A DNA stretch of 61,442 nucleotides, filler included. It is 4 parts of 4 records of this genome, joined end to end, with 100 filler letters (N's around TTAATTAATTAA, not from the genome) between each part and the next. Parts side by side here need not be neighbours in the genome. Positions count along the whole stretch, not along the records: positions 1 to 18,899 come from DRR723986_20771; 3 more parts are not named here. One strand, written 5' to 3'. Each line of letters opens with the position of its first letter. Positions within the stretch are counted from its first letter, which is position 1. Made by a program: the position numbers and the translations under genes. Under the pieces are notes generated by a model that was given only the letters and a program-made list of their open reading frames with translations, was not told where the DNA came from and searched no databases. Below are positions 5,648-49,125 of this stretch, in pieces.

Positions 5648-7027
5648 TTGCCGCCGCACATGACGTGCGCCTTTCACCCGATTGACGGACCTGCGTTGAC
5701 CAAGGCACTTCGACAGTTTCTCCTCCTTGCGATTGCCGGCACAGCATGCCTTTCCGGTTTCGGGTCTTCCTACGCAGCGGAGCCTGAGGAAGCGGTCATC
5801 ATGGCACCTGTTCTTGCCGCCCGGGCGGCAGCCGAGACAGTGCGCAAGGAACATGGACCTTTTTACACGGTCCGGGACGAGGCTGCCTTCCTGCAGCAGA
5901 TGTGCAGCGCCATCGAGACGGCTGCGAATAAACAGGGCCTGCCACCGGGTTTCTTCGCCAAGTTGATCTGGAAGGAAAGCCGTTTCGACCCCAACGCGAT
6001 CAGCCCGGCCGGTGCGGAAGGCATTGCCCAATTCATGCCTTACACCGCCGCCAACTGGGGCCTTGAAAACTCATTCGAGCCAGTGGAAGCCATTGAAGCT
6101 TCATCCCGCTTGCTGGGATATCTTTTGAAAGGTTACGGCAACCTTGGGCTGGCGGCCGCGGCCTATAATGCGGGGGAAGACCGTGTCGACAACTGGCGCC
6201 GTGGGCGCGGGCGCCTTCCTGATGAAACCCGCAATTACGTTTATTCAATCACCGGGCACAAGGCATCGGACTGGAAACGGGGCAAAGGGCCGGACGTCGA
6301 CTTTACCCTGGACCAGACGCAGGATTTTCAGACGGCTTGTCAGGACTTCCGCCTGATCGAAGCGCCATTGCAACGCCGACTTGCCAATACCTACTACAAC
6401 CGGGGACTGGCACTGGCGAAGTCGAAAGATTATTCAGCCGCGCTGCTTCGCTACACTGTTGCCATCCGGCTTCGCCCCGAGTTTCCGGAAGCCTACAACA
6501 ACAGAGGGCTGGTCTACCGCATGATGGGTGATTATGGCGCTGCCATCGCCAACTATGATGTCGCTCTTAAGATGCGGCCCGGATATGCCGCAGCCTACAA
6601 CAACCGGGGATACGCCAAGCGCAAGCTTGACCAATACCGGGAAGCGATAGCCGACTACGACAAAGCCCTGGCGATCAATACCAATTACGCCGCTGCACGT
6701 TTCAACCGTGGTTTCGCCCAGGCTCAACTTGAAAATTATACCGCGGCGATTGCCGATTACGACGTGGTCCTGAAGCTTGTCGCCAACCACCCCCTTGCCC
6801 TTTACAATCGCGGCAAGGCTCATCTTGCCGCCGGTCATCTGAACAAGGCGGAAGACGACTTCAACTCTGCGATCGCCCACAGCGACGGATTTGCCAAGGC
6901 CTATTACAGCCGTGCGAACCTGAGGCTGCGACTGGGCCAACGCGACCAGGCCAAAGAAGACTACCTGAAGTCCGTCTCACTCGACGCCGGCCTGGGGCGC
7001 GGCAAATACGCCATCGCTTTCGACTGA
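5648..7027 (+). CDS. Lytic transglycosylase (SLT domain) fused to about 6 TPR repeats
   Basis: IWKESRFDPNAISPAGAEGIAQFMP and AAAAYNAG SLT motifs; six AYxNRG-type TPRs; signal-peptide-like N-terminus. Confidence 0.85.
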   Translation: MPPHMTCAFHPIDGPALTKALRQFLLLAIAGTACLSGFGSSYAAEPEEAVIMAPVLAARAAAETVRKEHGPFYTVRDEAAFLQQMCSAIETAANKQGLPPGFFAKLIWKESRFDPNAISPAGAEGIAQFMPYTAANWGLENSFEPVEAIEASSRLLGYLLKGYGNLGLAAAAYNAGEDRVDNWRRGRGRLPDETRNYVYSITGHKASDWKRGKGPDVDFTLDQTQDFQTACQDFRLIEAPLQRRLANTYYNRGLALAKSKDYSAALLRYTVAIRLRPEFPEAYNNRGLVYRMMGDYGAAIANYDVALKMRPGYAAAYNNRGYAKRKLDQYREAIADYDKALAINTNYAAARFNRGFAQAQLENYTAAIADYDVVLKLVANHPLALYNRGKAHLAAGHLNKAEDDFNSAIAHSDGFAKAYYSRANLRLRLGQRDQAKEDYLKSVSLDAGLGRGKYAIAFD

Positions 7028-7071
7028 CACCTGCGACTTGACGATTGCCTGCGGGGCAGCCTTGCGAACTG

Positions 7072-9714
7072 CTATTCCTTAGGCACCTCGGTTCTCACCA
7101 GCGGCAGGCTGAACCCGCCCGTGTGATACTGGTGGCAAAGCGTGCATTCTTCTCCAGCCGCACGTTCCGTGTGGCAGGTCGCGCAAGTGGCCTTGTCGAT
7201 AGGGGTGAAGTTCGGTGCGTGGATGGCAGGGTCACCTTGCTCGTAGCTCTTCAGATAGGTGTCCGCCCCCGTGGTGAGCGCGTGGCACGTCACGCATCCT
7301 TCCGTTCCGACCGCGCTGATGTGCGGGTCGTGAGAAAAACGCGTGAAACGTGTCGTCACCTGTGCGGGATTGAAGGGGTGCCAGCGCACGGCCTTTTCAA
7401 CGCCAGCCGTGTCGACGCTGTGGCACTTGGTACAGCGTCCCACCGCGCCCGGGTCACTGAGCGAGGCAAATACGGGATCCCGCAGGGCCTTTTCCTGATC
7501 CGTTGCCGCATGGCTCGAATAATCGAGCCATGTTTTCAGGAAGGGGTCTTCATGTCCCGTCGGGCGATACCGGATCGTATGGTCCTGCCGGTACCAGCCA
7601 CCATAAAGAGCCCAGTTTTCCGGATCGAATGGTTCCTCCCGGGTTTGCGCAGAGGGGTCGTCAGTTGAAATCGATGTGTCTACAGGTTCGGCCGCATCGC
7701 TCAACAGGCTCGTTCCGCCTTCGTCTGCCGCAAGGATGTCCTCACCGGCAAGAATGTCGTCACCGGCAAGTATTTCCTCTCCGCCCGCAGGCTGGCCGAG
7801 GAGAGCGTCCCCATCGGAACTGCTCGAAGCGTCGTCCTCCGCCAGGATGTCCAAGCCGTCTGACTCGTCGGCGCCTGCGTCATCCGCTATGGCAAGACCG
7901 TCTTCAACCAACGAGCCTTCGTCTGCAAGAATGTCATCTTCGGTATCTGTCTTGCCGGCCAATGCGTCATCGGCTCCTGCAGGCGCCAGCAACAGGTCCT
8001 CGGAAGCCAGCTCTGCGCCATCATCCGTTCCGCCGCCAAGGATGAGGCTATCCGTACCATGGCCTTCGCTGGCGGCATCGTCTGTCCCGGCCAGAATATC
8101 GCTGTCGTCCACCCCGGAAAGGGTGTCCGGCGCGGCCTCTTCGGTTTGTACCGCTTCGTTCTCTTCAACCTCCTGCCGGGCTTCCTCGAACGCGCGGGTT
8201 GGCGTTCCGTCGGCGTGGCGGACTAGGTCCTCAGCGAGATCCGGCAACCATTCCCGGTTGGCGGCGGCGATCACGTCGTGTGGCATCACTCCGACCATCA
8301 GCGCCATTTGCCTGTGGTCCGTCATGGTTTCGCTGTCCGCTGCCCCGGCGCCCATGGCGGCAGGAAGGCCATCACGCTCGATATTCGCGAGCAACTGCTT
8401 CACCGCCCAGGCCAGCGTTTGGACCCTTGCCAGAGCGTCCTCATCAGCCTCCCGCAGATCCAGAAGATCCAGGTCCGACACTTCACCCACGATATCCCGG
8501 CCGTCCAGCACCAGCGCCAGAAGCGCTCGCATGAAGGGCGTAATTCCTGCCTCGGACCTTTCCGGCCAGGACCCGACGTCGATACCCCGCTCCGCAAGCG
8601 TTTCGACGTCCAGGCCCGGAACAGAGAGGAAATTCGTGCCCTTCGGTCCGCTCACGATGGTCTGGCCGAGAATATCGCCACTGTGACAGGTCGCGCACAT
8701 GCCTTCGAAATCTCGAACTGCCATGTAGCGGCCGTCGTTCCCCGCCTCATGGCAGGTCTCGCACATGGCCGGAACCTTGCCGGCACCATCGGGCTTCTCG
8801 GTGGTATCCGGGAAGTGCTTTCCGAAATGCGACTTGTGATCAAAGATGATGCTGGTGCGCTGGTAAAAGGGATAGCCTGCGAATTGCGGATGACTGTCCT
8901 CGAAACGCCCGAACTTCTCGACATGGCAGGTCTGGCACCTGTCATTGGAAACTTCGGTCAGTTTGCCCAGGCTTCCCTGGTGCTCCTGGTGACAGGTGGC
9001 ACAATAGATGTTCTGCGACCCGGCAACTGCGCTACCTTGCGTCTGCCCTGCCATCGGCAATGAGAACTTGATCCGGTTTGTCCAGCTCTGATCACGCCCG
9101 GTGCCGACTTCCGCCGTGCGGGCAAGTGTCATCTGCCGGAGCTGTTCAACCGGCGTTGTATGTGCCGTGAACGGCTGCGAACCAACGTCGTGACAGGTGG
9201 TGCAGAGCGCTGCTGTCTGTTTCGGTCCTGCAGCTGTCGCGGCAAGGCCATGAAGCCAGCCAAGGCCTTGCGGACGTGCGTCGGCGTGGCACGACTGGCA
9301 ATCTGTCAGGTTGGCGTGCTGGGCTGCAAGCCGGCCCGGCATCAGATAGTTCTTTGCCACTCCGCCGGAAAGAATGATCGCCACGAGCCCGGCAGTCAGC
9401 GCCGTGAGCCAGACAGCTGCCCGCCGCCTGCGCTTGCGCAGGCTCGGCTTCGGCACGCAGGGTTCCTGGTTCAGACAGCAGCTTCCGTCCGGCAGCGGAC
9501 CATCTTCGCAAGGTCCGCCTTCCTGGCTCGAGCGCCGGCAAATCCATCGGTCGCCGTCCTGTACAGGCTGGCAGGCAGGCCCCGCCCTGCAGTTTCCTTT
9601 CCGGTCCGGTCCCAGACGACACGGACACCCGTCGGCAAGATGTCCGCAGACCCAGTCGTCCTGCGGCCGTTCATAGCGGCGTTCCTGAACACCAATTCTG
9701 CGTAACAGGCTCAT
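7072..9714 (-). CDS. Membrane-anchored decaheme cytochrome c with N-terminal Cys-rich domain and acidic linker
   Basis: 10 CxxCH motifs (CQSCH, CTTCH, CATCH, CQTCH, CETCH, CATCH, CTKCH, CVTCH, CATCH, CTLCH). RKRRRR followed by a hydrophobic helix. Confidence 0.88.
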   Translation of the reverse strand: MSLLRRIGVQERRYERPQDDWVCGHLADGCPCRLGPDRKGNCRAGPACQPVQDGDRWICRRSSQEGGPCEDGPLPDGSCCLNQEPCVPKPSLRKRRRRAAVWLTALTAGLVAIILSGGVAKNYLMPGRLAAQHANLTDCQSCHADARPQGLGWLHGLAATAAGPKQTAALCTTCHDVGSQPFTAHTTPVEQLRQMTLARTAEVGTGRDQSWTNRIKFSLPMAGQTQGSAVAGSQNIYCATCHQEHQGSLGKLTEVSNDRCQTCHVEKFGRFEDSHPQFAGYPFYQRTSIIFDHKSHFGKHFPDTTEKPDGAGKVPAMCETCHEAGNDGRYMAVRDFEGMCATCHSGDILGQTIVSGPKGTNFLSVPGLDVETLAERGIDVGSWPERSEAGITPFMRALLALVLDGRDIVGEVSDLDLLDLREADEDALARVQTLAWAVKQLLANIERDGLPAAMGAGAADSETMTDHRQMALMVGVMPHDVIAAANREWLPDLAEDLVRHADGTPTRAFEEARQEVEENEAVQTEEAAPDTLSGVDDSDILAGTDDAASEGHGTDSLILGGGTDDGAELASEDLLLAPAGADDALAGKTDTEDDILADEGSLVEDGLAIADDAGADESDGLDILAEDDASSSSDGDALLGQPAGGEEILAGDDILAGEDILAADEGGTSLLSDAAEPVDTSISTDDPSAQTREEPFDPENWALYGGWYRQDHTIRYRPTGHEDPFLKTWLDYSSHAATDQEKALRDPVFASLSDPGAVGRCTKCHSVDTAGVEKAVRWHPFNPAQVTTRFTRFSHDPHISAVGTEGCVTCHALTTGADTYLKSYEQGDPAIHAPNFTPIDKATCATCHTERAAGEECTLCHQYHTGGFSLPLVRTEVPKE

Positions 9715-9716
9715 GG

Positions 9717-10544
9717 TCAGGCAATTCCGCTCGAAAAGGCATAGGCAACAACGACATGCGCCAGGATTGCCAGGATCAGGGCATAAGTTGGCGGTACATG
9801 CACAAACAGCCAGAGTTTCAGCAATCCGCCGTTGGCATACTGGAAATCAAGGTCGTTCTTGGCGCGCACCAGCTGGCGCATCCGTTCCAGACGCTCCTTG
9901 CCCTTGCCGTCCAGATACCGCTCGATCGACTGCAGCTCGCCCATGATCCGCGAAATCGGCAGGCTCGACTGACGCAGATGCGCGAACACATACCGCGGCC
10001 GCGCAAAGAACCGGCCGAGCTCCCGCTGGTAGACATTGGCAAGGCTGACGGAACTGCCGTCTTCCAACGACGCCAGCGCCAGAGTTTCCGCCTCGTCCGC
10101 TATTTGCGCGCGCAACACGGGAATGCGCTCGAACAGGACCCGGTCACCTCTGCCTTCCAGGCGCACGGGAACGACCCGGGCCAGAAAACCGCCGACACAG
10201 CCGCTTGCCGAAACCAACACGAACAGGATCCACAAGAGCCATTCCAGCGGCGCATTCGGAAACCGCAGATGCGTATGCACCAGAAAGACGCCGATGGTCA
10301 GGAACCCGAGGTAATAATGCACCTGCAACCAGTGGCGCACGCGCCCGAGCGGCAACGTGCTCAACTGCTTGCGAAACGTCAGCAGCAGCATGCCGGCCAT
10401 GACCGCCACCAGAACCCAACCGTTGAGGAACTGGCTGTCGCGCAACGAGATCCGGTAAGCCTGGTTTACGGTCATGAAAACCGCGAGCAAAACTGCGGCC
10501 GCGCCAAGCTTCAACAGGATGTTGCGATTGAGGAGCCAGCTCAT
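9717..10544 (-). CDS. Integral membrane protein, probable diheme-b (ferric-reductase-like) subunit
   Basis: Several TM helices and two H-x13-H pairs (HYYLGFLTIGVFLVH, HVPPTYALILAILAH). ATGA overlap with the upstream gene. Confidence 0.75.
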   Translation of the reverse strand: MSWLLNRNILLKLGAAAVLLAVFMTVNQAYRISLRDSQFLNGWVLVAVMAGMLLLTFRKQLSTLPLGRVRHWLQVHYYLGFLTIGVFLVHTHLRFPNAPLEWLLWILFVLVSASGCVGGFLARVVPVRLEGRGDRVLFERIPVLRAQIADEAETLALASLEDGSSVSLANVYQRELGRFFARPRYVFAHLRQSSLPISRIMGELQSIERYLDGKGKERLERMRQLVRAKNDLDFQYANGGLLKLWLFVHVPPTYALILAILAHVVVAYAFSSGIA

Positions 10545-12250
10545 TTCAGCCACTCCAGCAGTCTTTCGGTGTCGCGCATGTTGACGCGCGCAAGCGCGTC
10601 ATGCGGACAAGACTGGACACAGGCTGGGCCCGTCAACTGATCGGCGCACAGATCGCATTTGGTTGCCCGGCTGATGGGCTGCCCTTCGCGATCCGTCACG
10701 AACTGCCCGTTCTCGTCACGGATCTCGACCATCCGGATATTGCTGTACGGACAGGAATTGGCGCAGGTCGCACAGCCGATGCAGGTGTTGTCGTCAATGA
10801 CGACAGTCCCGCTGTCCTCGGCCCTGTGAATGGCGCCGGTTGGACAGCCGATCAGGCAAACCGGATCGGTGCAATGCATGCAGGCGCTCGCGATCATCGC
10901 GTTCTCGAACCGGCTCCCCTGCCGAACGAAGCGGGGGTTGTTGTCGTGGGCGGTCGCGCAGGCGCGCACGCAATCGTCACAGCCGACACAGCGCTCCAGG
11001 TTGATCAGCATGGCTTCTTCACCATTGATGAAACGGTGATCGACGAGGAAGTCCATCATGCCCTGGCGTAGTTCCCCGCGCGTGCCGTCACGATCATCCG
11101 GCCTGCCCTGCCGCAGGAAGGAAGGATCTAGCCCCGGCAATACATGTTTCTGGACCAGATGCGTCGGAATGCGGATGACGTCGACATAGCCGATGGCGCG
11201 CAGGCTCGTATCCAGAACCGGCGAAACCTTGTCCCGCGCAAACGCCGCAATCGCATCCAGTCCGAAAACGTCGTTTTTCGACAGATGGCCAATGGTCCTG
11301 TCGCCGTGATCGATCCGTTCGCTGACCCGGGCAAAGCCACTGTTGATCAGCAACAAACCGTCGACGTGACTGCCCTGTTCACAAATCACCGGCTCCTGCT
11401 GGATGATGTGCTGCGCCCCATCTTCCTTGGAAATTTCAGTCTTGAACCGATGGGTCCAGTTGAAATTGCCATAGGTTTCGAACAGGGCCTCTTCTGCGAT
11501 TTCCGCCAGCGCTGTGCTATCGACATGGGCAAAGACCGGGCATTCCTGCAAACGGGTCAGCAAACCGCGTTCATGGTAAAGCTGGTCGATCTGCTTGCGG
11601 AAGCCATCCGACCAGTCTCGAATTTCGCGCAGCCCCTGCCAGCGCAGCTCGAACAGGACAGTGTCGTCCTCAAGGGCATAGATGGTCGCGCGCCTTGGGC
11701 TTCGGGTCAGGGCGGCCAGCTCGCCGAACATCTGCGGGGCTTCCAGCAGGAAAGTCTCGTGCTTCGCAATCAGCTCGTCCGCGTCGACACGCAAGGCAGC
11801 TTCCACCGCATTTGCTCGTGTGCCTTCATTGACTGAAGCGGCCGCGGACGAAGGTCTGCGAGACCGCCGCCGCGCAGGGCGGTACTCTGGCGGACGCTTG
11901 CGCGCAAACAGTTGCGCAAGCGACCTGCGCCAGGATTTCTGTTGCTTGCGGCCCGAGCCGGCGGTCGGCGCAGACGCAGTCAGGCCGAACACGGATCCGG
12001 ACAGAATGATGAACAGCGAACTTCCATAGTCACCCTTGCGCAGGACAGTTTCGCCCTTTTGAAAGGTCCTGATCCGGCCATCATTCGCAATGACGCTTGC
12101 AACCGGCAGCCACGAGGGAAAGTCGGCCGGATTGACGTCGGCAAACGCCGGCAGGGCCAGGACACGGTCCACCGTCTCCCGGTCCAGCGGTTCCTTGCCG
12201 AATGGCTCGTCCCAGCGCCGGTTTCGCTCGTCGCGAAGCTCCTGATCCAA
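10541..12250 (-). CDS. Cyclic-nucleotide-binding domain(s) fused to a 4x[4Fe-4S] DmsB/NrfC-type ferredoxin
   Basis: FGELAALTRSPRRAT cNMP cassette. Cys groups CVGCDDCVRAC, CMHCTDPVCLIGCP, CIGCATCANSCP, CDLC...CVQSCP. TTG start with GGAG RBS. Confidence 0.85.
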   Translation of the reverse strand: MDQELRDERNRRWDEPFGKEPLDRETVDRVLALPAFADVNPADFPSWLPVASVIANDGRIRTFQKGETVLRKGDYGSSLFIILSGSVFGLTASAPTAGSGRKQQKSWRRSLAQLFARKRPPEYRPARRRSRRPSSAAASVNEGTRANAVEAALRVDADELIAKHETFLLEAPQMFGELAALTRSPRRATIYALEDDTVLFELRWQGLREIRDWSDGFRKQIDQLYHERGLLTRLQECPVFAHVDSTALAEIAEEALFETYGNFNWTHRFKTEISKEDGAQHIIQQEPVICEQGSHVDGLLLINSGFARVSERIDHGDRTIGHLSKNDVFGLDAIAAFARDKVSPVLDTSLRAIGYVDVIRIPTHLVQKHVLPGLDPSFLRQGRPDDRDGTRGELRQGMMDFLVDHRFINGEEAMLINLERCVGCDDCVRACATAHDNNPRFVRQGSRFENAMIASACMHCTDPVCLIGCPTGAIHRAEDSGTVVIDDNTCIGCATCANSCPYSNIRMVEIRDENGQFVTDREGQPISRATKCDLCADQLTGPACVQSCPHDALARVNMRDTERLLEWLK

Positions 12251-12262
12251 CAGTCCGGCTCC

Positions 12263-13282
12263 CTACTGCGTCACGGGTCCCTTGAACTTGTCGGCTCCCG
12301 GAATGTACTTGTCGACCGCGGCGAACGTCGTCCCGTCGTAGGTGTCGGCAAACTTGAGGCCGAGCACGGAGATCTTTGCCGCGGCATCGGTCAGCTCATC
12401 CTGGTTGTTCAGCTTGAGCTTGGCACCACTTGCGATTTCCTGGATCTCACCCAGTTCGGGCGCTTCGGGCAACAGCTTGGCAAGACTTGCCATGACCTTC
12501 GTGGCATTGCTTGCCCGTTTGGCCATCTTCACGGCGTAGTCCTTCTTCTCGGTCGCCTTGCTGACGCCGATCAGTGCCGTTTCCAGCTCGACGATACGCC
12601 CGACGAGGAACAGCATCCGCTTGCGTTCGATGGACGCTTCCGGGTTGGACTTGCCCTTGTTGTACCAGGTGTTGTGACGCACCTCGCCCTGGCTCCAGCT
12701 AACCAGTTCAAACGCACTGCCGGGCGTGTGACCGCCGACATTCACCAGTTCCTCGTTCGGCACCAGGTGACAGCTGAAACAGTTTTTCGCCAGTGCGTAG
12801 GTCATCTTGGGCCGGATCATGCCGGCTGCTTCGGCCTTTTCCCAGCGTGCCGCTATTTCCGCCTCGGTTTCCTGACCTTCCTTCTTGCCGCTGAAATCCG
12901 AGTGCACCTTGTACCATTCCTTGGCAGGACCATGGCAGGACTCGCAGGAATTGCCGGCAATCGCCTTTTCCTTGCCGTCCACCGTCTGCATGGTGAAATG
13001 ACAGTTGGTGCAGAGACTTTCCGCCTTAAGTCGCTTCACGCCCATGTTGGCGGCGATCTTTTCGGCATCCTCGCTCTTGGGCAGATCCCTGAAGGTGCTG
13101 AAGTGATGCGTGTTCTGCCAGATCGAGGTTTCCTTCTTGTGGCATTCCGCACATTCGTTCGGTCCGACAATCATGCTCGGGTCGGCCTGAGCCGGGGCAA
13201 GTCCGGCCAGCACGAGATATCCGACAGCGCACACGGCAAGGCAGGACGCCGCCTGGCGCAAGCCCTTCAGTAATCCAGCCAT
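12263..13282 (-). CDS. Periplasmic tetraheme cytochrome c (c554-like)
   Basis: Signal peptide ending AQA-D; CAECH, CTNCH, CESCH, CFSCH; GAGGGA RBS before ATG 13282. Confidence 0.85.
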   Translation of the reverse strand: MAGLLKGLRQAASCLAVCAVGYLVLAGLAPAQADPSMIVGPNECAECHKKETSIWQNTHHFSTFRDLPKSEDAEKIAANMGVKRLKAESLCTNCHFTMQTVDGKEKAIAGNSCESCHGPAKEWYKVHSDFSGKKEGQETEAEIAARWEKAEAAGMIRPKMTYALAKNCFSCHLVPNEELVNVGGHTPGSAFELVSWSQGEVRHNTWYNKGKSNPEASIERKRMLFLVGRIVELETALIGVSKATEKKDYAVKMAKRASNATKVMASLAKLLPEAPELGEIQEIASGAKLKLNNQDELTDAAAKISVLGLKFADTYDGTTFAAVDKYIPGADKFKGPVTQ

Positions 13283-13334
13283 ATCCAATCCCTCAATCCT
13301 TTGATCCAAAAATGATGGACACCCTCTCGCGTCG

Positions 13335-14609
13335 TCAGGCATCCAGAATGACATTGCCTCCCGGGCAAGCGATACACATGAGCACGGACCCTTGCGCCGG
13401 GCTGCTGGCGGGCCGCGTGACATAGGTCACGTCGCCTTCCTTGAGCGCTGTCGCGCAGGTTCCGCAGTTGCCCGCCCGGCAGCCGGAAGCGACCCGGATG
13501 CCGTTGCGTTCGGCCAGATCCAGCAGCGTTCCGTCCTGCTCGTGCCAGGAAACCTTCTTGCCGGAGCGCGAAAATTCCACCTGCACGCTTTCAGCCGCCT
13601 CCCGTGAACCTGCCGGCGATTTGACGGTTTTGACGGACGCAGGCCCGAATGCCTCGAAGTGGATATCGCTGTCCGGTACGCCCCAATCCCGCAGCTGCTC
13701 CGTCAACGAAGACATCATCTGCGGAGGGCCGCAAACATAGAACTCGTAGTTGGAAGACGTCAGATACCGCTTCAGGACATCAACTGTCAGGAAGCCCGGG
13801 CAATCGTAATCCCGTCCCTCAACGCAAGCATCAGTTGGTGCGCTGTAGAGCACGCGGTAATGGACGTTGTTCCGCCGTTCGGCGATCTCCCGGATTTCGT
13901 CGCACAGCACAATGTCATCGCCGCTACGCGCGGCGTGGAAGAAATGCACTTCGCGGTGGCTGCCGGCATCGTCAAGCGCCTTCAGCATGGACAGCACCGG
14001 CGTCAGGCCGACACCACCACCAATCAGGACAACCGGCCGTTCCGATTGCAGGTCCAATACGAAACCTCCCTTGGGAGCTTGCACATCGACGACATCGCCT
14101 TCCTTGAGGCTGGCATGGAAATAGGTCGAGGATAGCCCGCCGGGTACGGTTTCACCGGCATCCGGCGGTGGTGACAGTCTCTTGATCGTGACCCGGTACC
14201 GGTCCAGACGGGAGGGACTGTCGGACAGGGAATAGCACCGGATAACTGGTGCGGGCTGATCTGAAATCGGCAGTTCGAACGTCAGGAACTGGCCCGGCAG
14301 AAACGGTGGAAGCTCGCCTCCGTCATGCGGCTGAAGATAGAACGAGCAGATATCGCCGCATTTGTTTTCGACACGCTTTTCGACAATCCGGAACTTGCGT
14401 TTGCCGGCCCAGGTCGTTCCGGACTTGAGCCTGTCGACTTCCGCATTGCGCAGGGCTGCCTGTGCCAGATCGTTGAAATGCTGCAGGTGCCTGGCATCCA
14501 GGCGTCTTTCGCGAAAGACGGTGGCCACAGACGAATAAACACCGAGGCAGAGCTGAAACAGGGCGAGCGCAACAATCGTACCACCGCCGATTTGCAGTGC
14601 CAGGATCAT
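13335..14609 (-). CDS. FAD/NAD(P)-binding oxidoreductase with C-terminal [2Fe-2S] domain and N-terminal membrane anchor
   Basis: RCYSLS, GGLSS, GGGVGLTP, YVCGP, HFEAF; GCRAGNCGTC...C ferredoxin motif; hydrophobic first ~30 residues. Confidence 0.9.
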   Translation of the reverse strand: MILALQIGGGTIVALALFQLCLGVYSSVATVFRERRLDARHLQHFNDLAQAALRNAEVDRLKSGTTWAGKRKFRIVEKRVENKCGDICSFYLQPHDGGELPPFLPGQFLTFELPISDQPAPVIRCYSLSDSPSRLDRYRVTIKRLSPPPDAGETVPGGLSSTYFHASLKEGDVVDVQAPKGGFVLDLQSERPVVLIGGGVGLTPVLSMLKALDDAGSHREVHFFHAARSGDDIVLCDEIREIAERRNNVHYRVLYSAPTDACVEGRDYDCPGFLTVDVLKRYLTSSNYEFYVCGPPQMMSSLTEQLRDWGVPDSDIHFEAFGPASVKTVKSPAGSREAAESVQVEFSRSGKKVSWHEQDGTLLDLAERNGIRVASGCRAGNCGTCATALKEGDVTYVTRPASSPAQGSVLMCIACPGGNVILDA

Positions 14610-14652
14610 GGGCAGGCCGCCTTTCCGACCAGAAATGAGCCGATGTTTCTCA

Positions 14653-16170
14653 TCAGAACCTCGTTCTCAGTTCCATTCGCAGTCCCGTTCCCGCCTTCCG
14701 GTCCTGTCCGGCGGAAACAAACCCGTCGACCTGAATGCTGCTCCTGTTGTTGAGGGCATGCAAGAGTTGGCCGCCGAATGCGACCACACCGGCGTCGCTG
14801 CCGTCGGTATCCTTGCGTCCACCGAGTTCCATAACAAGCTGTGTCTTGTCCTCGTTGAAGAACATCTGGTGGCCGATAGATCCACCAAAGACGCTGTCTG
14901 CCCGGTTGGAAAGTGCAGACCCGCCCAGACCAACAGCCGGAGCGGCAAACAGGATGCCAACCTGCCCCAGAGGACCACCCGTGAGGCTGTCGCGGGCAGC
15001 GGAGGTGTAGTTGCCGATAGCCCAGAAGGCGTTGGCATAGACGACGTTTTCAGACGCCGTCACGGTGCGCGAAACTTCCGAAAACATCAGCACGCCGTTG
15101 TCGACAGCAGGGCCGCGCTTTTCGATCGCGGTCGAGGTGTTGATCCGAAACGCCGTATTGTAAAGCCCGAACCGCTGTACGGCAGACGCCCCGAAATAGA
15201 AGCCGTCTCCCCCCTCGTCCTCATCGCTGATGACATAGGCGAGATCCAGATTGGCCGTGCTCTTGCGGAAATCAGCCTCGGTGAACAGGCCGAGAAGGAA
15301 GGCACTGTCGTCGAGTTCATTGTCGCCGCGGCGGATATTGTTCCATCCGAAAACACCGGTTGCCCTCAGATCCGGCGTCAGGCCGGGAATGACGATCGTG
15401 TCGCGCGTGATGCCGAGCGCGTCGACACTGTCGTTGATCATCATGCCTTCCTGAAAGAACAGGGGCTGACGGCCGATGGAAAATCCGAAGTCGAAATTGC
15501 GGTTGTCGTCCGGATCGAGGTTCGGGAAAATCTCGCCGAACTCCCCCTCGAAGAAAAGCGTCGTCACATAGGGATTGAGCCCGTTGACATATTCAACGCC
15601 GCCTTCATCCGTATAGAGAATGCCCGTGTTCCGGCGTTTTTCCGTCAAGGGCGAAAACCCGATGAGGATCCGCTCGGTGGGTGTCAGTTTCAGATTGGCA
15701 AAGATGTCGATACGGCTCGCCCAGAACTGGCGCGGATCGTCAACGCCGTTGGCATAGTGGCCAATTGCGGTGCGCGCGTCGCCGAAAACCCAAAGCGCCG
15801 GTTGCCAGATCGCCCCGGTCGGCAATTCGATGCCGGGCGCAAGATTTCCGCTGGCGAGGAATTTCTCGCCGCGCTGGAAGATCGGCGGCGTCGGTTCGGG
15901 CTCCTCATCTTCCGCTATGATCGGAACTGCATCGGTGCTCAATTCGCTTGAATGGTGGTCACCGGCAATCAGGGGTGCAGGCCCGCTGTTTTCTTCCTGA
16001 TGCTTGCGGACTTCCGCTTCCGTGACCATGGGAATGGGGTCGTCGCTCAAGGCACTGCCCGCTGCCAAGACCTGCCCGCCGGCCTGCAGAAGAAGCGTAG
16101 CCGAAGCCACCGTCGTGATTGCCCACGCACTGCACCGCCGTCCCCGAGTTCTGCTTGCCTGATACCTCAT
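14653..16170 (-). CDS. Probable outer-membrane beta-barrel (porin-like) protein
   Basis: Signal peptide, alternating-hydrophobic beta-strand patterns and C-terminal ...GLRMELRTRF with terminal Phe. ATGA overlap with the upstream cytochrome. Confidence 0.7.
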   Translation of the reverse strand: MRYQASRTRGRRCSAWAITTVASATLLLQAGGQVLAAGSALSDDPIPMVTEAEVRKHQEENSGPAPLIAGDHHSSELSTDAVPIIAEDEEPEPTPPIFQRGEKFLASGNLAPGIELPTGAIWQPALWVFGDARTAIGHYANGVDDPRQFWASRIDIFANLKLTPTERILIGFSPLTEKRRNTGILYTDEGGVEYVNGLNPYVTTLFFEGEFGEIFPNLDPDDNRNFDFGFSIGRQPLFFQEGMMINDSVDALGITRDTIVIPGLTPDLRATGVFGWNNIRRGDNELDDSAFLLGLFTEADFRKSTANLDLAYVISDEDEGGDGFYFGASAVQRFGLYNTAFRINTSTAIEKRGPAVDNGVLMFSEVSRTVTASENVVYANAFWAIGNYTSAARDSLTGGPLGQVGILFAAPAVGLGGSALSNRADSVFGGSIGHQMFFNEDKTQLVMELGGRKDTDGSDAGVVAFGGQLLHALNNRSSIQVDGFVSAGQDRKAGTGLRMELRTRF

Positions 16171-18482
16171 TTGAGCACGACACTCGCCTTGCGCGTCCAA
16201 AGCACGGAGCTGCCCTGCACCACCTTGCGCGCGATGCCGGCCGGGCTCATGCCGTAGTCGAAGCCCGCTCCCTGAATGGCCGCGATCAGGTTGACCGGCA
16301 CCATCTGTGAAATCAGCTTCACCGAGATGGAATAGCGTTCACCCGGCTTCAGGTTTTCGGCGGGCACGGCATAGGTCGCGGTGCGGCTCGCCCCCGGTTC
16401 CAGGTTCTGCTTGTGCTTTCTGGCCCCGCGCGGCCGTCCGTAGATGGTGGTTGCCCGGCGTTCCGGCCGAACGAGCGGCAGAACGTCCGTCGAAGTGTTC
16501 ACCGCCAGCACCTGTTCGCGTTCACCGCCACGCAGCAGCCGGACCACGAACTTGGATTGCAGGCTGAACAGGTCCTTGTCGAGCTTCAGCTCGCCATTGT
16601 GAACGTAAAGCGAGTGGGCATCGCGAACGTCGCCATTGGGGTCCCTGTCACCGGACACATAAACCGTGTTGCCCTTGCTGTCCTTGACCGTCACCTGAAG
16701 GAATATCAGACGTTCAGCGTCAAACCCGGTCGGCACACCGTGACCGTCCGTGCCGCTGCTGACATCGACGGAGAATTTGAGAGCCCGGCTAGTGTTGTCG
16801 ACAATGGTGATGTCGCTCAGCTTGAAGCCGTTGCGCAGCACCTGAAGCCGTGCCTGACGCGCCTTTTCCAGCCGCTCGAACTGGGTATCCAGGATCTCGC
16901 GGCCATCATAACGATCATCGATGGACGACCAGGCTTCGGGAAACTTGTAGCCGTCCTTGACGTTGTCCTCGAACTTGTCCGTTCCCCAACCGGCGCCGAC
17001 ATTGAACTGCAGCCATTCAGCCAGCGTCTTGAACTCCGCCGCCTCGACGTTGTGCGGGAAAATGCCCGGATGAATGATCGAGTAATCAGGGCCTGCAAAC
17101 ATGTGGTTGGTCAGTTTGCGGTTACGGGTCGGGACATCACCAACGATTGCTGCGGGGCCGTAGTCATAGCCGGAGGCAACGCCCTGAACCTTGCCCATAT
17201 GGCAGTCCTGGCAGGTCTCGCCTCTCTTGGCGGCCGGCGAGCGCTTGTATTCGGCAAAAGCCTCTTCCAGCTTGAAGCCGTTGAACAGCGTCACATCATG
17301 GCAGGTGCCGCAAAAGCCTGGCTTGGTGAGCGCGAAGAAAGGCTTCGCCTCGGTATGGATGCTGCGTCCCGGATCATCCTTGCTTTGGGAAACCCGGTAT
17401 TCCTCGGGCGTGTTCAGAACGCGCTTCAGCTCCTCGCCGCCCTTCGGGCCATAGACCGGCGAGAATACATCCCCCTCTTCCAGCGCGAACCGGCCACTGA
17501 TCTTGCCGTAGTTCCGGCTGACGCGGTGGCAGGCAACGCAGGTGATGCCCTCCCGTGAGGTCGGATTGCGCTTCAGGTTTGAGACATAGAGCGACTCGCC
17601 AATGTTCATGCCGACCGGGTTGTGACAGCGAATGCAGAAGTCGCCATTGGTCGCGCTGGTCTTCATGTTGATGGTGGTCTGCATCGCCATGTAGATCGGG
17701 CTCAGCTGCGCGTAAGCATGCTGAGACACGGACCATTGCTCATACTGGCCAGGGTGGCAGGTCGCGCAGGTGTTTGCGGAGGGATATTTGCTTTCCAGGA
17801 AGAGCTTTTCATGCTCCGCATTGGCTGTTCGCCGGATCGTTTCTTCTTTTTTCTTGCCTTCGACGGTTTCGGTCAGCCCGGTTCCGCCGCCACTCAGCAG
17901 GTCGTCATCATCGCCAACTGTCAGAAGGTCATCATCGGAAAGAAGATCGTCATCTCCTGCCAGAAGGTCGTCGCCGGAAACATCGGCCCCGTCGCCCGCA
18001 AGCAGATCATCACCTTCAAGCAAATCATCCCCGGCAAGCAGGTCATCGCCAGCCAGAAGATCATCTCCATCAGCCTTGGGATCATCACCTGCCAGCAGAT
18101 CGTCACCATCGGAAACAGAGGCGGCACCGGGTTCCTCTGCGGTCAGCAGATCATCGCTTCCGTCATCGGAAGGCAGCAGGTCGTCACTGCTGTCCGTCAG
18201 AATCGCCTCATCCGAAACCGCGTCTTCGGCGGGCGTCAGCAAGTCATCATTCTGTTCGGCTTGCGCCAGGATCAGGCGATCGCCGGCGCTCCTGCCGTTT
18301 TCGAGTTGGGATACGAAATCGACCAGCGCCCGCACATCGCCAGATTGGATAAGTTGCTGGTGATACTGCCGAAATTCGTCTGAAAAAGCGGCTGCGCGAT
18401 CAACACTGCCGGCGCCGGAAAGGATGAGTATTCCGAAAAGAGGCTTCAAAAACGGTCGAAAAAATTCCGATAAACGCGACAT
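16167..18482 (-). CDS. Exported pentaheme cytochrome c with N-terminal acidic DDLL repeats
   Basis: CATCH, CIRCH, CVACH, CGTCH, CQDCH; signal-peptide-like N-terminus. Start is ATG 18482 or TTG 18497. Confidence 0.85.
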   Translation of the reverse strand: MSRLSEFFRPFLKPLFGILILSGAGSVDRAAAFSDEFRQYHQQLIQSGDVRALVDFVSQLENGRSAGDRLILAQAEQNDDLLTPAEDAVSDEAILTDSSDDLLPSDDGSDDLLTAEEPGAASVSDGDDLLAGDDPKADGDDLLAGDDLLAGDDLLEGDDLLAGDGADVSGDDLLAGDDDLLSDDDLLTVGDDDDLLSGGGTGLTETVEGKKKEETIRRTANAEHEKLFLESKYPSANTCATCHPGQYEQWSVSQHAYAQLSPIYMAMQTTINMKTSATNGDFCIRCHNPVGMNIGESLYVSNLKRNPTSREGITCVACHRVSRNYGKISGRFALEEGDVFSPVYGPKGGEELKRVLNTPEEYRVSQSKDDPGRSIHTEAKPFFALTKPGFCGTCHDVTLFNGFKLEEAFAEYKRSPAAKRGETCQDCHMGKVQGVASGYDYGPAAIVGDVPTRNRKLTNHMFAGPDYSIIHPGIFPHNVEAAEFKTLAEWLQFNVGAGWGTDKFEDNVKDGYKFPEAWSSIDDRYDGREILDTQFERLEKARQARLQVLRNGFKLSDITIVDNTSRALKFSVDVSSGTDGHGVPTGFDAERLIFLQVTVKDSKGNTVYVSGDRDPNGDVRDAHSLYVHNGELKLDKDLFSLQSKFVVRLLRGGEREQVLAVNTSTDVLPLVRPERRATTIYGRPRGARKHKQNLEPGASRTATYAVPAENLKPGERYSISVKLISQMVPVNLIAAIQGAGFDYGMSPAGIARKVVQGSSVLWTRKASVVLK
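17895..18248 (-). repeat. Coding repeat: 12 copies of DDLL, including tandem GDDLL(A/E) hexapeptides
   Basis: Counted in the translation (e.g. GDDLLAGDDLLAGDDLLEGDDLLAG). Confidence 0.9.
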
Positions 18483-18869
18483 TCCAGATCCACACAAAAC
18501 ATGTTCTCAGGCCATCGCTTACACCGATCCCCCAACTCAAATTCACACTACGGAAACCTCAGGACAACATCAAAAGAAAACTGTTCACAAATTAGCCGCA
18601 TTTTCGCCTTGGTAAACTCGCGGCTAACCGCAGGAACAAACAGAGCAACGCACTGTCGCGTCGCTAACCGGTGCCTTCACATTCCGGGTAATGGCGTGAA
18701 TCAATTGCATTGCCGGCAGCATTCGCCCGGAAGGTCACAAAGTTGCTGCAACTGTGTTTCCGCTCGCAACAACACATTCTCGCAAAACAATGTTTGCGTC
18801 ACACCAGCACACAGACTGGATTACCTGCAGCGCAGCGAAATAGGACTATGAAGGTGGGAAGAAGGAAAG

Positions 18870-18899
18870 TGGCGGAGAGGAAGGGATTCGAACCCTCGA
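18870..18899 (-). tRNA. 3' end of tRNA-Ser (cut by contig end)
   Basis: Reverse complement TCGAGGGTTCGAATCCCTTCCTCTCCGCCA: T-arm, CTCTCC acceptor strand, G discriminator and CCA. Anticodon not visible. Confidence 0.8.
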
Positions 18900-18999
18900 N
18901 NNNNNNNNNNNNNNNNNNNNNNNNNNNNNNNNNNNNNNNNNNNTTAATTAATTAANNNNNNNNNNNNNNNNNNNNNNNNNNNNNNNNNNNNNNNNNNNN
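18900..18999. other. Artificial contig linker
   Basis: N run + TTAATTAATTAA (stops in all six frames) + N run. Confidence 0.98.
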
Positions 19000-19000: not shown

Positions 19001-19603
19001 TACCTGTCGACCAAGAACACCATCCTCAAAGCCTATGATGGCCGCTTCAAGGACATCTTCCAGGAAGTGTTCGACACCGAATTCGCTGACAAGTTCGCAG
19101 AATTCGGCGGCACCTATGAGCACCGCCTGATCGACGACATGGTCGCAGCGGCCATGAAATGGTCAGGCGGCTATGTCTGGGCCTGTAAGAACTATGACGG
19201 CGACGTCCAGTCCGACACCGTCGCCCAGGGCTACGGTTCGCTTGGCCTGATGACTTCCGTGCTGATGAGCCCGGATGGCAACACAGTTGAAGCTGAAGCC
19301 GCCCACGGCACAGTCACCCGCCACTACCGCAACCACCAGAAAGGCGAAGCGACCTCGACCAACTCGATCGCCTCGATCTACGCCTGGACCCAAGGCCTCG
19401 ACCATCGCGGCCGGATGGACGGTACGCCGGAAGTGCGCAAGTTCGCCCAGACGCTGGAAGCGACCATCGTGAAGACCGTCGAAGCCGGCTTCATGACGAA
19501 AGACCTCGCCCTGCTCGTCGGCCCGGACCAGGGCTACCTGACGACCGAAGGCTTCATCGAGAAAGTCGCCCAGAACTTCGAAGAGGCGATGTCGAAGGCC
19601 TGA
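19001..19603 (+). CDS. icd: NADP-dependent isocitrate dehydrogenase, C-terminal part
   Basis: [37 protein letters not shown]. Confidence 0.95.
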
Positions 19604-39881: not shown

Positions 39882-41786
39882 ATGCGAAACTTTTCCCTGC
39901 TTGCTGGCGTTGCCGCAGCAGCCCTTCTCTCAGGATGTACAATGAACGAGAAAACTGACCTCGCCGCTGCACCGGCCGCCGAAGCGCCGGATTCCGCGCC
40001 GGCAGCCCCAGTGGCAAAGCGCGTGGATTTCGAAATCACCCAGGTCGGCCGCACACGTGTAGATCCATATCACTGGATGAAGGATGACGCCTGGCAGGAA
40101 GTCATGCGCGACCCGTCCGTCCTGCGCGCAGACATCCGCGAATACCTTGAAGCTGAAAACGCCTACACAAAGACAAACTTCGAAGAACCGACCGCGGAAC
40201 TGCGGGAAACCCTGTTCCAGGAGATGAAAGGCCGGATCAAGGAAGACGACTCCACCGTTCCGGAGATTGACGGCCCTTACGCCTATTATTCCCGTTACCG
40301 CGAAGGCGGCGAATATCCGATCATCGCCCGGAAGAACGCCGCCGATGCCTTCACCCCGGATGCCGAAGAGACCATCCTGCTCGACGGCGACAAGATGGCG
40401 GAAGGCACCGACTATTTCTCGTTCGGCAGCATCGATACCTCACCGGATCATAGCGTGATCGCCTATGCGCTCGATACACAGGGCAGCGAATTCTACACGG
40501 TCACGATCACCAATATCGAATCTGGCGAAGCAGCGGCAGAACCGATTTCGGACAGCTATGGCTCGTTCGAGTGGAGCGAAGACGGCAAGTCCATCTTCTG
40601 GGTGCACCGCGACGAGAACGCCCGGCCAGATGCGGTCTACGAGCGCGATCTGGAAACCGGTGAAGACACGCTGATCTATGAGGAAAAGGACCCCGGCTTC
40701 TTTGTCGGCGTGTCCAAATCCGCCAATCGCGAGAAGATCTTCGTAACGTCCTCGAACCACACGACATCTGAGTGGCACTGGTTCGATGCGAGCGAGCACG
40801 CCCCAACACTGCACACAATTGCCCCTCGCGAAAGCGGCGTGGAGTATTCGGTCGTCGTCTGGGATGACCAATTCTACATCACCACGAATTCAGGCGGGGC
40901 CGTTGACTTCAAGGTCATGCGCGCGCCATTCGAAGCCACTTCGCGTGATGATTGGGAACAAGTGATTGCCCACCGTCCCGGCACGTTGATTCTCGGTCTG
41001 CAGTCTCAGCAGGATTACCTCTCCCGCATGGAGCGCGAGAATGGCCTGCCCCGGATCGTCGTACGGGCCCGCGGCGACAGCGCCGAGCATGAGATCAGCT
41101 TCGATGAAGCCGCCTACGATCTCGGGCTCGATTCCGGCTACGACTATGACGTGCCGATGCTACGGTTTGAGTACGCCTCGCCCACCACCCCGGACCAGGT
41201 CTACGACTACGACCTGAACACGCACGAGCGTATCCTTCGCAAGACGAGGGAAGTGCCATCGGGCCACAATCCCGACGATTATGTCGCCGAACGCGTCATG
41301 GCTCCGAGCTGGGACGGCGAGGAAGTGCCCGTCACCCTGCTGCACCGGAAGGATACGCCGATCGACGGGACCGCGCCGATGCTGCTGTATGGATATGGCT
41401 CCTACGGCATCACCATCCCGGCAGACTTCCGGACCAGCCGCCTGAGCCTTGTCGATCGCGGTTTCGTCTACGCCATCGTGCATCCGCGCGGCAGCATGGC
41501 GAAGGGCTATCAGTGGTACCTGGACGGGAAGCTCGAGAAGAAGACCAACACGTTCAAGGACTTCATCGCAGCCGGACACTTCCTGGTCGACAATGGATAT
41601 TCGGCGCCGGACAAGGTCGTGGCGATGGGCGGCTCCGCTGGCGGCCTGCTTATGGGCGCTGTCGCCAACATGGACCCGGAACTGTTCGCCGGCATGATCG
41701 CAGCAGTGCCGTTCGTGGACGTGATCAACACCATGTCTGACGAGAGCTTGCCGCTGACGCCGCCGGAATGGCCGGAATGGGGCAAC
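39882..41786 (+). CDS. ptrB: Oligopeptidase B (S9A), 3'-truncated, with lipoprotein signal
   Basis: DPYHWM, LLYGYGSYG, GGSAGGLL, VPFVD; LLSG-C lipobox. Confidence 0.9.
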
Positions 41787-41886
41787 NNNNNNNNNNNNNN
41801 NNNNNNNNNNNNNNNNNNNNNNNNNNNNNNTTAATTAATTAANNNNNNNNNNNNNNNNNNNNNNNNNNNNNNNNNNNNNNNNNNNN
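41787..41886. other. Artificial contig linker
   Basis: N run with TTAATTAATTAA. Confidence 0.98.
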
Positions 41887-41916
41887 ACTTGAACCCCCGA
41901 CACGCGGATTATGATT
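41887..41916 (-). mobile_element. tRNA-Met(CAT) 3'-half fragment; probable att site of an integrated element
   Basis: Reverse complement AATCATAATCCGCGTGTCGGGGGTTCAAGT gives the anticodon loop, 3' stem strand and T-arm. The 5' stem strand (GCGG) and D-arm are replaced by AT-rich DNA. Confidence 0.75.
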
Positions 41917-49115: not shown

Positions 49116-49125
49116 AATGGGCCTT

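Follow-up and report, generated by a model that had tools for sequence, protein, structure and literature searches.

An intact ptdABCDEFG (PCC4) gene cluster may form an NAD(P)H-driven electron-export chain that ends in the periplasm beside an OprD/AlgE-like channel

Clusters of the PCC4 type were described by He, Barco, Emerson and Roden (2017, Front Microbiol, PMC5566968), whose available text lists a porin, cytochromes with 4, 5 and 10 CxxCH motifs, and a protein with five transmembrane (TM) helices that carries SGxxG on TM4 and W-x3-H-x13-H on TM3 and TM5. According to the same text, a redox gene lies upstream of the tetraheme gene, and in subgroup II, reported from Zeta-, Gamma- and Alphaproteobacteria and from Planctomycetes, a PF13247 iron-sulfur (Fe-S) gene lies directly upstream of the membrane-protein gene. 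A preprint (bioRxiv 10.1101/2023.11.21.568154), also cited here from the available part of its text, named an operon ptdABCDEFG for its penta-, tetra- and deca-heme products and stated that its function "remains completely unknown". In this study, we analysed a stretch of DNA of 61,442 nucleotides (nt), called the window below, whose first contig (DRR723986_20771) carries seven genes on the minus strand at 7072-18497. There is very little doubt that this cluster is an intact member of the published ptdABCDEFG/PCC4 subgroup II and is therefore already known. We further propose, with a probability of about one half, that the seven Ptd proteins form a non-respiratory chain exporting electrons from NAD(P)H to the periplasmic cytochrome PtdA, with the barrel PtdB admitting a soluble acceptor.

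The window cluster has all the signature features of PCC4 subgroup II, and its composition is no different. Its gene order is identical to that given in the preprint, where A to G are a penta-heme cytochrome, a porin, an oxidoreductase with flavin adenine dinucleotide (FAD) and NAD(P) sites, a tetra-heme cytochrome, a protein with cyclic nucleotide monophosphate (cNMP) and 4Fe-4S domains, a ferric-reductase-like TM protein and a deca-heme cytochrome. The preprint, as far as its available text goes, claims that the operon had not been described before, but PCC4 (2017) is earlier. A preliminary description of the window had recognised seven co-oriented genes with overlaps or short gaps, 5+4+10 CxxCH motifs, a beta-barrel with a terminal Phe encoded at 14653-16170, a membrane protein with two H-x13-H pairs, a cNMP protein with four [4Fe-4S] clusters, and an FNR-[2Fe-2S] reductase, and each of these was found again when the genes were translated and their products counted for motifs, searched against families and modelled. 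Its further statement that no characterised system has this composition is strictly true, but the cluster has been named twice, and a characterised analogue exists in the Ext cluster. What is added here is the link between PCC4 and ptd, the predicted solute-channel fold of PtdB, the analogy with Ext/MccSep and its limits, a wider phyletic range, an argument for four clusters in PtdE, a predicted cytoplasmic eight-cysteine (8-Cys) domain in PtdG, and a modular A-B / C / D / E-F-G organisation.

The Ext cluster of Geobacter sulfurreducens has been characterised. ExtKL is MccSep, a periplasmic homotetrameric polysulfide (and selenite) reductase (2026, PMC13510729); according to the available text, its active site is formed by a His/Cys-ligated heme 2 and a selenocysteine (Sec) from a loop of its immunoglobulin (Ig)-like domain, and the enzyme is inactive with nitrite or nitrate. 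The extKL gene adjoins extI, which encodes a porin reported for selenite uptake (PMC5877670, available text), and other products of extHIJKLMNOPQS are cytochromes with 12, 10 and 4 hemes, a Rieske protein and a cytochrome b (PMC13510729, PMC5877670). By these gene descriptions, Ext and ptd have in common a porin beside a pentaheme cytochrome with an Ig-like domain, cytochromes with 10 and with 4 hemes, an Fe-S protein and a b-type cytochrome in the membrane. Their inner-membrane modules differ: that of Ext is described as a Rieske/cytochrome b module, bc-type and quinol-linked, whereas ptd has an FNR-type flavoprotein, a polyferredoxin and a W-x3-H-x13-H protein.

In the chain that we propose, PtdC, a flavoprotein anchored in the membrane on its cytoplasmic side, would oxidise NAD(P)H and release single electrons via its [2Fe-2S] cluster. 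The four [4Fe-4S] clusters of PtdE would act as a cytoplasmic wire, the flow through which is probably gated by its cNMP domains, and the two bis-His b hemes of PtdF would take electrons through the inner membrane. In the periplasm, the anchored PtdG and the soluble PtdD, together with 14 bis-His c hemes, would then serve as a relay, from which electrons would arrive at PtdA, a periplasmic pentaheme cytochrome with an Ig-like domain. PtdB would be a solute channel that lets the soluble acceptor of PtdA in or its product out and would not sheathe a cytochrome; candidate acceptors are chelated Fe(III), Mn(III), O2, or an oxyanion of sulfur, selenium or another element. The domains and motifs with their conservation, the predicted folds and the modular synteny are results of the analysis; we infer the order and direction of electron transfer, the protein contacts, the role of the cNMP domains and the periplasmic location of PtdA. 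Electron export that starts at about -320 mV runs downhill, aided by the membrane potential, and the reverse is uphill on both counts; given that PtdC and PtdE start at the level of NAD(P)H, outward flow was chosen. Such a route dissipates energy and so would suit an assimilatory, detoxifying or redox-valve function. Many of the carriers, including Roseibium, Nisaea, Tistlia, Verrucomicrobiota and Planctomycetota, are presumably aerobic or facultative heterotrophs, as judged from record titles, and this agrees with a dissipative function.

The seven genes are conserved together over a wide range of bacteria. A homology search from PtdE, in which 8000 candidates were scored, found at least 3964 relatives at E <= 0.001, the nearest named one being that of Roseibium sp. 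Sym1 (85% identity). When species-representative genomes, one for each prokaryotic species, were scanned with a pattern, 572 of the first 600 stretches listed encoded a PtdE relative, so that such stretches number at least 572; the best 80 loci were kept for comparison. By record titles, these came from many orders of Alphaproteobacteria, from Beta- and Zetaproteobacteria, and from SAR324, Nitrospinota, Verrucomicrobiota, Kiritimatiellae, Planctomycetota, Acidobacteriota and Candidatus Uabimicrobium, a spread of at least eight phyla. The available text of the preprint restricts the operon to saline habitats, whereas the titles here include metagenome-assembled genomes (MAGs) of soil-type Verrucomicrobiota and of Acidobacteriota. 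When gene content was determined by tblastn with the seven window proteins, the complete set was present in 55 of the 80 loci and in 45 of the 52 with enough flank (at least 7 kb on the upstream side of ptdE and at least 5 kb on its downstream side), so that the synteny survey proposed in the preliminary description bears out co-conservation; 38 loci have the window's exact order and orientation. Roseibium aggregatum (L003), Nisaea denitrificans (L066) and Tistlia consotensis (L031) are among the carriers of the complete set. The genes ptdE, ptdF and ptdG are contiguous in all complete loci and ptdA and ptdB are always adjacent; in 11 loci, A-B-C stands as a block that is inverted or displaced. 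Of the loci with enough flank, seven lack a nearby A-B pair; five of these genomes were searched whole, and every one encodes a PtdA homologue elsewhere (E <= 7e-114), with a PtdB homologue beside the displaced PtdA in five of six places. Flanking gene families are each found in at most six of the 80 loci, and those six are close relatives. Taken together, the high co-occurrence and the lack of conserved flanking genes indicate that the seven genes are a self-contained, selected unit, which is made up of an E-F-G core, an A-B pair, C and D. The CxxCH counts of 5, 4 and 10 are kept in 55 of 57, 66 of 76 and 64 of 69 homologous frames, respectively, from the 80 loci, fragments at contig ends included. 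As a separate observation, one Rhodospirillales MAG, whose core cluster (L018) is without an adjacent ptdA-B pair, has two divergent ptdA-ptdB pairs standing head to head elsewhere in the genome (G001:C25:44496-48919; L081, L086).

AlphaFold2 (AF2) modelled PtdB as a barrel of 18 long strands with a mean predicted local distance difference test (pLDDT) score of 83.9, exceeding 90 in the barrel, and the protein ends in ...RTRF. Exhaustive structure alignment of this model gave Z 27.0 for OpdQ, with a root mean square deviation (rmsd) of 2.9 over 319 residues, and Z values of 26.7 for Campylobacter jejuni MOMP, 26.4 for OccAB3, 24.5 for AlgE, 23.4 for Chitoporin, 20.2 for Maltoporin and 15.5 for OprP; MtrB (6r2q_B) came at rank 48 with Z 11.3 and rmsd 8.5. 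MOMP, AlgE and Occ proteins were also the top Foldseek matches, and no NCBIfam family was found for PtdB. MtrB has 26 strands. These comparisons suggest that PtdB is an 18-strand OprD/AlgE-like solute channel and not an MtrB-like sheath and, judging from known structures, its barrel is probably too narrow to sheathe a folded cytochrome. The cluster resembles MtrCAB, PioAB and MtoAB in having a barrel gene beside multiheme genes, one of them for a decaheme protein, but it differs from these systems in having no surface lipoprotein cytochrome, in its inner-membrane module and in its 18-strand barrel.

These properties bear directly on the first alternative, a true porin-cytochrome conduit in which PtdA, or part of PtdA and PtdG, would reach the surface through PtdB and reduce extracellular Fe(III), Mn(IV) or an electrode. 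Such a conduit would account for the translational coupling and constant adjacency of the barrel gene to a multiheme cytochrome gene, for the 19 hemes capable of bis-His ligation, and for the high transcription of ptdAB reported from MAGs of ocean oxygen-deficient zones (bioRxiv 10.1101/2023.11.21.568154); extracellular electron transfer is also what both papers favour in their available text (PMC5566968; bioRxiv 10.1101/2023.11.21.568154). Nevertheless, we consider it unlikely, given that the 18-strand PtdB scores Z 24-27 with OprD/AlgE-type channels, that none of the three cytochromes has a lipobox, that He et al. predict all three to be periplasmic (PMC5566968, available text), and that the characterised relative ExtKL/MccSep is described as periplasmic (PMC13510729). 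An MtrA/DmsE-family identity (TIGR03508) was rejected for PtdG and PtdA, which score 19.9 and 26.8 bits against a cut-off of 192.2. The preliminary description had envisaged a trans-envelope wire leading to surface cytochromes. Its inner part, which leads from NAD(P)H by way of FAD/[2Fe-2S], four [4Fe-4S] clusters and two b hemes to c hemes in the periplasm, agrees with the predicted topology; a passage across the outer membrane and a surface location of the cytochromes are not supported.

PtdA consists of a signal peptide, a variable acidic N-terminal region, a pentaheme domain with five CxxCH (Pfam Cytochrome_C554) and a predicted C-terminal Ig-like domain, sharing with ExtKL the five motifs and this domain. 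It matches Thermochromatium tepidum c552 (PDB 5ze8) at E 3.4e-6 with the single sequence and at E 1.1e-14 with a profile, the profile match extending over the five heme motifs and into the C-terminal domain. The preprint too ties PtdA to this cytochrome (bioRxiv 10.1101/2023.11.21.568154, available text), which forms one structural family with Geobacter ExtKL (2025, PMC11976967). The best NCBIfam match of PtdA was the ExtKL model NF040886 (E 9e-10), at 37.7 bits, far below its cut-off of 250. In the loop that corresponds to H-x-x-P-x-G-[U/C] of MccSep, PtdA reads H586-G-V-P-T-G-F592, with the loop His kept and Phe, which is found in at least 90% of 27 sequences, in place of Sec/Cys; the register was set by this motif against the printed peptide and not by full alignment. 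No non-motif Cys is conserved (at >= 90%) in 56 PtdA sequences, so PtdA also differs from MccSep in having no conserved Cys as distal ligand of heme 2. The Phe at the Sec position and the lack of a conserved non-motif Cys indicate that PtdA does not have the chemistry of MccSep. The preliminary claim that no catalytic subunit is encoded here is nonetheless not safe, because the fold family of PtdA has a catalytic member, even though PtdA is without its Sec/Cys residues. Two side observations concern the same protein. The C-terminal domain contains, at residues about 612-630 (window 16170-16900), a conserved S-G-D-x-D-P-N-G-D-x-x-D stretch, which we take to resemble a calcium-binding loop. In addition, the Roseibium MAG that contributed locus L001 has a second frame, of 1236 amino acids, that matches the ExtKL model at E 4.1e-12 and lies apart from the ptd cluster (G006:C1:1629876-1631084, L087).

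At the cytoplasmic end, PtdC matches FAD_binding_6, NAD_binding_1 and Fer2 in Pfam and the reductase domain of Hmp in NCBIfam (240.8 bits), in the layout of Hcr, PaaE and GbcB. The RxYS, GGxGxTP and CGP motifs, like the four Cys of the cluster, are each found in at least 90% of 58 sequences, and 51 of 56 homologues have a hydrophobic N-terminal helix followed by basic residues. From these features, PtdC is predicted to be a membrane-tethered, cytoplasm-facing NAD(P)H:FAD:[2Fe-2S] reductase with a C-terminal plant-type [2Fe-2S] domain.

PtdE, which has no signal peptide, matches cNMP_binding at 71.9 bits (cut-off 27.5) and Fer4_11 (PF13247) at E 2.8e-12, and its best NCBIfam matches are the N-terminus of AegA, DmsB and HydN. 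Its 16 Cys, arranged in four motifs, are all invariant in 33 sequences, two of them being only nearly invariant in a set of 14. The available preprint text gives PtdE two [4Fe-4S] clusters, but the 16 invariant Cys argue for four. In the phosphate-binding cassette of the first cNMP domain, F175, G176, E177, R183 and R186 are invariant or nearly so in the 33 sequences (E177 invariant, R186 in at least 90%), in what we take to be the canonical register of such cassettes. The available PCC4 text mentions neither the cNMP domains nor the 8-Cys domain of PtdG, both of which are present in the window cluster. PtdE is extended at its N-terminus by a domain of about 100 amino acids in Planctomycetota, Ca. 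Uabimicrobium and one Verrucomicrobia MAG (L043:9698-11728, L079:9680-11692, L072:9671-11683). This domain is FHA by Pfam in L043 (E 9.8e-12) and L079 (E 4.5e-11), while the N-terminal part in L072 is similar by sequence only. Fusion to FHA in two lineages suggests that PtdE is a cytoplasmic, signal-controlled protein.

The AF2 model of PtdF (pLDDT 90.0, predicted template modelling score 0.82) has five TM helices and a cytoplasmic helical insert of about 120 residues. H79, H93, H252 and H266, the Trp of each W-x3-H-x13-H motif and the Gly residues of the TM4 motif (SGxxG, here S117-G118-x-x-G121) are invariant in all 37 aligned sequences. Chiefly because of these four invariant His, which lie on two helices of the same orientation, we regard PtdF as a putative diheme b protein. 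Matches to Pfam among 37 family members were weak, with DUF4405 in 24, Ni_hydr_CYTB in 18 and Ferric_reduct in seven (best E 0.0015); we take these three families to belong to one Pfam clan. In the Atlas, the cluster to which PtdF itself belongs bears the automatic name "ferric reductase like", and, as in the ferric reductase superfamily (PF01794), PtdF has two His pairs 13 apart on two TM helices. Foldseek gave no match to the PtdF model at E <= 0.001, and searches of the PDB by profile and sequence with PtdF and with the 8-Cys domain of PtdG returned nothing meaningful. By exhaustive structure alignment, Z was 11.2 for a designed two-heme bundle, 9.6 for HyaC, 8.6 for STEAP1, 8.5 for FdnI, 7.9 for cytochrome b561 and 7.7 for STEAP4.

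Two families of known systems can be compared with this inner-membrane segment. FdnGHI and HyaABC likewise pair a protein of the DmsB/HydN four-cluster type with a small diheme b membrane protein (fold matches 1kqg_C and 4gd3_A). The predicted ptd topology is inverted with respect to them, the Fe-S protein being cytoplasmic, and ptd has no molybdo- or NiFe catalytic subunit. With NOX, FRE and STEAP proteins, ptd shares the predicted path from NAD(P)H through FAD to two bis-His b hemes, the H-x13-H pairs lying on two similarly oriented helices. In ptd, however, the flavin and heme modules would be separate proteins with five Fe-S clusters between them, and the acceptor would be a c-type heme chain, whereas in the NOX/FRE/STEAP proteins it is O2 or Fe(III) directly.

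The second alternative, electron uptake, also turns on PtdF. Under the PCC4 model (He et al. 2017), periplasmic cytochromes would oxidise the Fe(II) or Mn(II) entering via PtdB and pass the electrons inward through PtdF to the quinone pool. Five-TM proteins with two H-x13-H pairs, such as HyaC and FdnI, can be quinone-active, and our loci include those of a Zetaproteobacteria MAG (L076) and of "Bacterium MnTg02" (L080); the available PCC4 text places the cluster in Zetaproteobacteria, in Hyphomicrobium of a pyrite-oxidising culture and in water-filter genomes (PMC5566968). We judge uptake to be improbable, because it leaves no role for the co-conserved PtdE and PtdC, the latter with intact NAD(P)H and FAD motifs. 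Inward transfer to Fe-S clusters and NAD(P)+ would moreover be uphill both in redox potential and against the membrane potential, and many loci come from taxa that are presumably heterotrophs.

PtdG is built of a cytoplasmic 8-Cys domain, a TM anchor, six hemes, a non-heme region with a variable acidic stretch, and four hemes. It matches Cytochrome_C7 and Paired_CXXCH_1 in Pfam and has no sequence match in the PDB. The eight Cys are kept in at least 98% of 65 sequences. The domain has no match in Pfam, the PDB or the Atlas; it matches 584 representative proteins, and in all 150 that were listed, mostly 600-1100 residues long, the match begins at residues 3-44. The 8-Cys domain, an Arg/Lys-rich stretch and a TM segment ahead of the hemes suggest that PtdG is not simply periplasmic, the location given in the available preprint text. 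For PtdD, which has four CxxCH and a signal-peptide-like stretch after Met-48, matches to Pfam Cytochrome_C554 (E 9.5e-15) and to cytochrome c554 in the PDB (1bvb, E 1.2e-6) point to a periplasmic tetraheme c554-like cytochrome. Conserved non-motif His number 10 in PtdG, four in PtdD and six in PtdA (in at least 90% of 56 sequences for PtdA), so that all 19 c hemes can be bis-His. Acidic DDLL/DDIL repeats, which reach 35% Asp plus Glu in a 60-residue window in 16 of 56 PtdA and 17 of 65 PtdG sequences, were considered as a core feature and dropped because they are lineage-specific.

These heme ligands bear on the third alternative, raised in the discussion of the preprint (bioRxiv 10.1101/2023.11.21.568154, available text), that PtdA or PtdD turns over NO, nitrite or hydroxylamine in the periplasm. 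The match of both cytochromes to the c554 family, the resemblance of the PtdC module to that of the NO-inducible flavohemoglobin and the presence of the cluster in Nitrospinota (L032, L073) would agree with a nitrogen-oxide enzyme. We nevertheless find it hardly probable: the three cytochromes contain no CxxCK and, with conserved His sufficient for both sides of every heme, no obviously open heme; the NrfA and octaheme families score 16-18 bits, far below their cut-offs; and MccSep is inactive with nitrite or nitrate (PMC13510729). Finally, a mainly sensory system, in which the cNMP (or FHA) domains and Fe-S clusters report redox or second-messenger state with little net flux, would make use of the canonical cassette and FHA fusions of PtdE and the conserved cytoplasmic 8-Cys domain of PtdG, but it is very improbable, since Pfam and NCBIfam reveal no kinase, cyclase or DNA-binding output domain in the seven proteins, no regulator gene is conserved in the flanks, and 19 c hemes, two b hemes, five Fe-S clusters and a barrel would be costly for sensing alone.

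Several points weigh against the export chain. The He et al. model has the membrane protein quinone-active, with electrons moving inward and the barrel as the PCC porin (PMC5566968, available text), and PtdF may have a quinone site. Window PtdF, like window PtdB, matches no Pfam family, and its fold matches have Z values that helical bundles can attain by chance. Within the 55 complete loci, ptdC stands with ptdA-B instead of with ptdE in 11, and the contacts PtdC-PtdE, PtdE-PtdF and PtdA-PtdB are presumed ones. An 18-strand barrel could pass an extended peptide or a small shuttle. PtdA may be only a carrier, since all its hemes are bis-His-capable and it has no MccSep catalytic residues, and the end point of the chain would then be undefined. 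Carriage by Zetaproteobacteria (also by Hyphomicrobium and water-filter genomes, according to the available text of PMC5566968) fits metal oxidation. A literature search on ptd and PCC4 found no experiment on any Ptd protein; one 2026 metagenome paper merely cites PCC4.

A more specific form of the export chain can be put forward tentatively. Possibly, ptd is the bacterial equivalent of NOX/FRE, split into separate proteins and equipped with an Fe-S relay. It would be gated by cNMP and in some phyla by FHA, and NAD(P)H would reduce a soluble periplasmic oxidant, entering via the OprD-like channel, at a pentaheme cytochrome of the MccSep fold family that has lost the Sec/Cys chemistry.

Details of the layout are collected in Table 1. 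The likely ATG of ptdA (18482) coincides with the end coordinate of the preliminary description. The ptdA stop and the ptdB ATG (16170) overlap as ATGA, as do the ptdE stop and the ptdF ATG (10544), and gaps of 43 nt and 12 nt separate ptdB from ptdC and ptdD from ptdE, respectively.

Table 1. Coordinates in the window of the ptd cluster, its genes and selected protein features
Feature	Position	Strand	Remarks
Seven-gene cluster	7072-18497	-	All open reading frames (ORFs) on minus strand; from ORF listing and translation
ptdA (gene 1)	16167..18482	-	776 aa; ORF open back to TTG at 18497
ptdB (gene 2)	14653..16170	-	ORF 14653-16200; ATG at 16170
ptdC (gene 3)	13335..14609	-	
ptdD (gene 4)	12263..13282	-	ORF 12263-13423; likely start Met-48, about 13282
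ptdE (gene 5)	10541..12250	-	
PtdE phosphate-binding cassette, first cNMP domain, residues 175-192	11675..11728	-	FGE...PR-x-AT
PtdE Fe-S region, residues 421-548	10607..10990	-	Four DmsB/HydN-type Cys motifs (DmsB/NrfC/HydN four-cluster ferredoxin type), 16 Cys
ptdF (gene 6)	9717..10544	-	ORF 9717-10553; ATG at 10544
PtdF first W-x3-H-x13-H (TM3)	10275..10331	-	W75/H79/H93
PtdF second W-x3-H-x13-H (TM5)	9756..9812	-	W248/H252/H266
ptdG (gene 7)	7072..9714	-	Begins 2 nt past ptdF stop
PtdG N-terminal 8-Cys domain, residues about 14-96	9427..9675	-	C23, C32, C42, C48, C59, C69, C79, C86
PtdG TM anchor	9358..9420	-	RKRRRR before it (positive-inside)
Contig-join spacer	18899..18999	.	N run, TTAATTAATTAA, N run; limits region upstream of ptdA

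Further spacers of N and the twelve-letter string TTAATTAATTAA occur at about 41831-41842 and about 52462-52473; the window is therefore made of several joined contigs, and adjacency of genes across a join is not genuine. The first contig ends with the cluster, upstream of which only about 400 nt of true DNA remain. Its downstream neighbours are housekeeping genes unrelated to it (SLT-TPR transglycosylase, HAD hydrolase, ABC ATPase), as are those for guanylate kinase, YicC and YceG beyond the contig join. A truncated isocitrate/isopropylmalate dehydrogenase frame (19067-19603) begins just past the first join. At about 18870-18898, upstream of ptdA and like it on the minus strand, the contig end cuts a tRNA of which the 3' part, from T-arm to CCA, is left; ARAGORN makes no call for it. 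The G+C content drops from about 0.60 to 0.48-0.56 over 40000-58000, largely in other joined pieces; another replicon, an island or mis-binning of contigs may be the cause.

A regulatory scan upstream of ptdA for the consensus boxes of FNR/Dnr, Irr ICE, Fur and RirA IRO gave zero matches in the window. In 58 upstream regions the matches numbered 12, 11, 4 and 7, respectively, against 5, 6, 1 and 7 in shuffled sequence, which is the background level. Fourteen RNA-labelled public runs are listed with the cluster stretch, all as assembled contigs. The contigs of the four runs examined represent a relative with about 2% differences, and they may be of DNA origin; as they run across neighbours on the opposite strand, they do not demonstrate transcription. 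RNA-labelled contigs from two studies end near 18522-18524, about 40 nt upstream of the ptdA ATG (a contig of X1 spans 6072-18522 and one of X13 ends at 18524), which is at most a weak hint of a ptdA transcript 5' end near 18523.

In summary, the analysis narrows the hypothesis to a chain with a periplasmic end point and a solute channel, for which Ext/MccSep is the analogue, and singles out four concrete features, namely the His quartet in PtdF, the cNMP cassette in PtdE, the 8-Cys domain in PtdG and, in PtdA, the H586 loop. The cluster is widespread and, according to the available text of the preprint, highly transcribed in ocean oxygen-deficient zones. If the chain from NAD(P)H to the periplasm is true, it would be a new bacterial way of exporting reducing power and would bear on marine iron, manganese, sulfur and reactive-oxygen chemistry. 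If, in addition, ptd is a counterpart of NOX/FRE, the system would be non-respiratory and would serve assimilation, detoxification or reactive-oxygen production, for example the acquisition of iron by reduction of Fe(III) chelates or the regulated formation of superoxide, in more than 570 species, and PtdG would, with its 8-Cys domain, contribute a module of a new kind for metal binding or docking.

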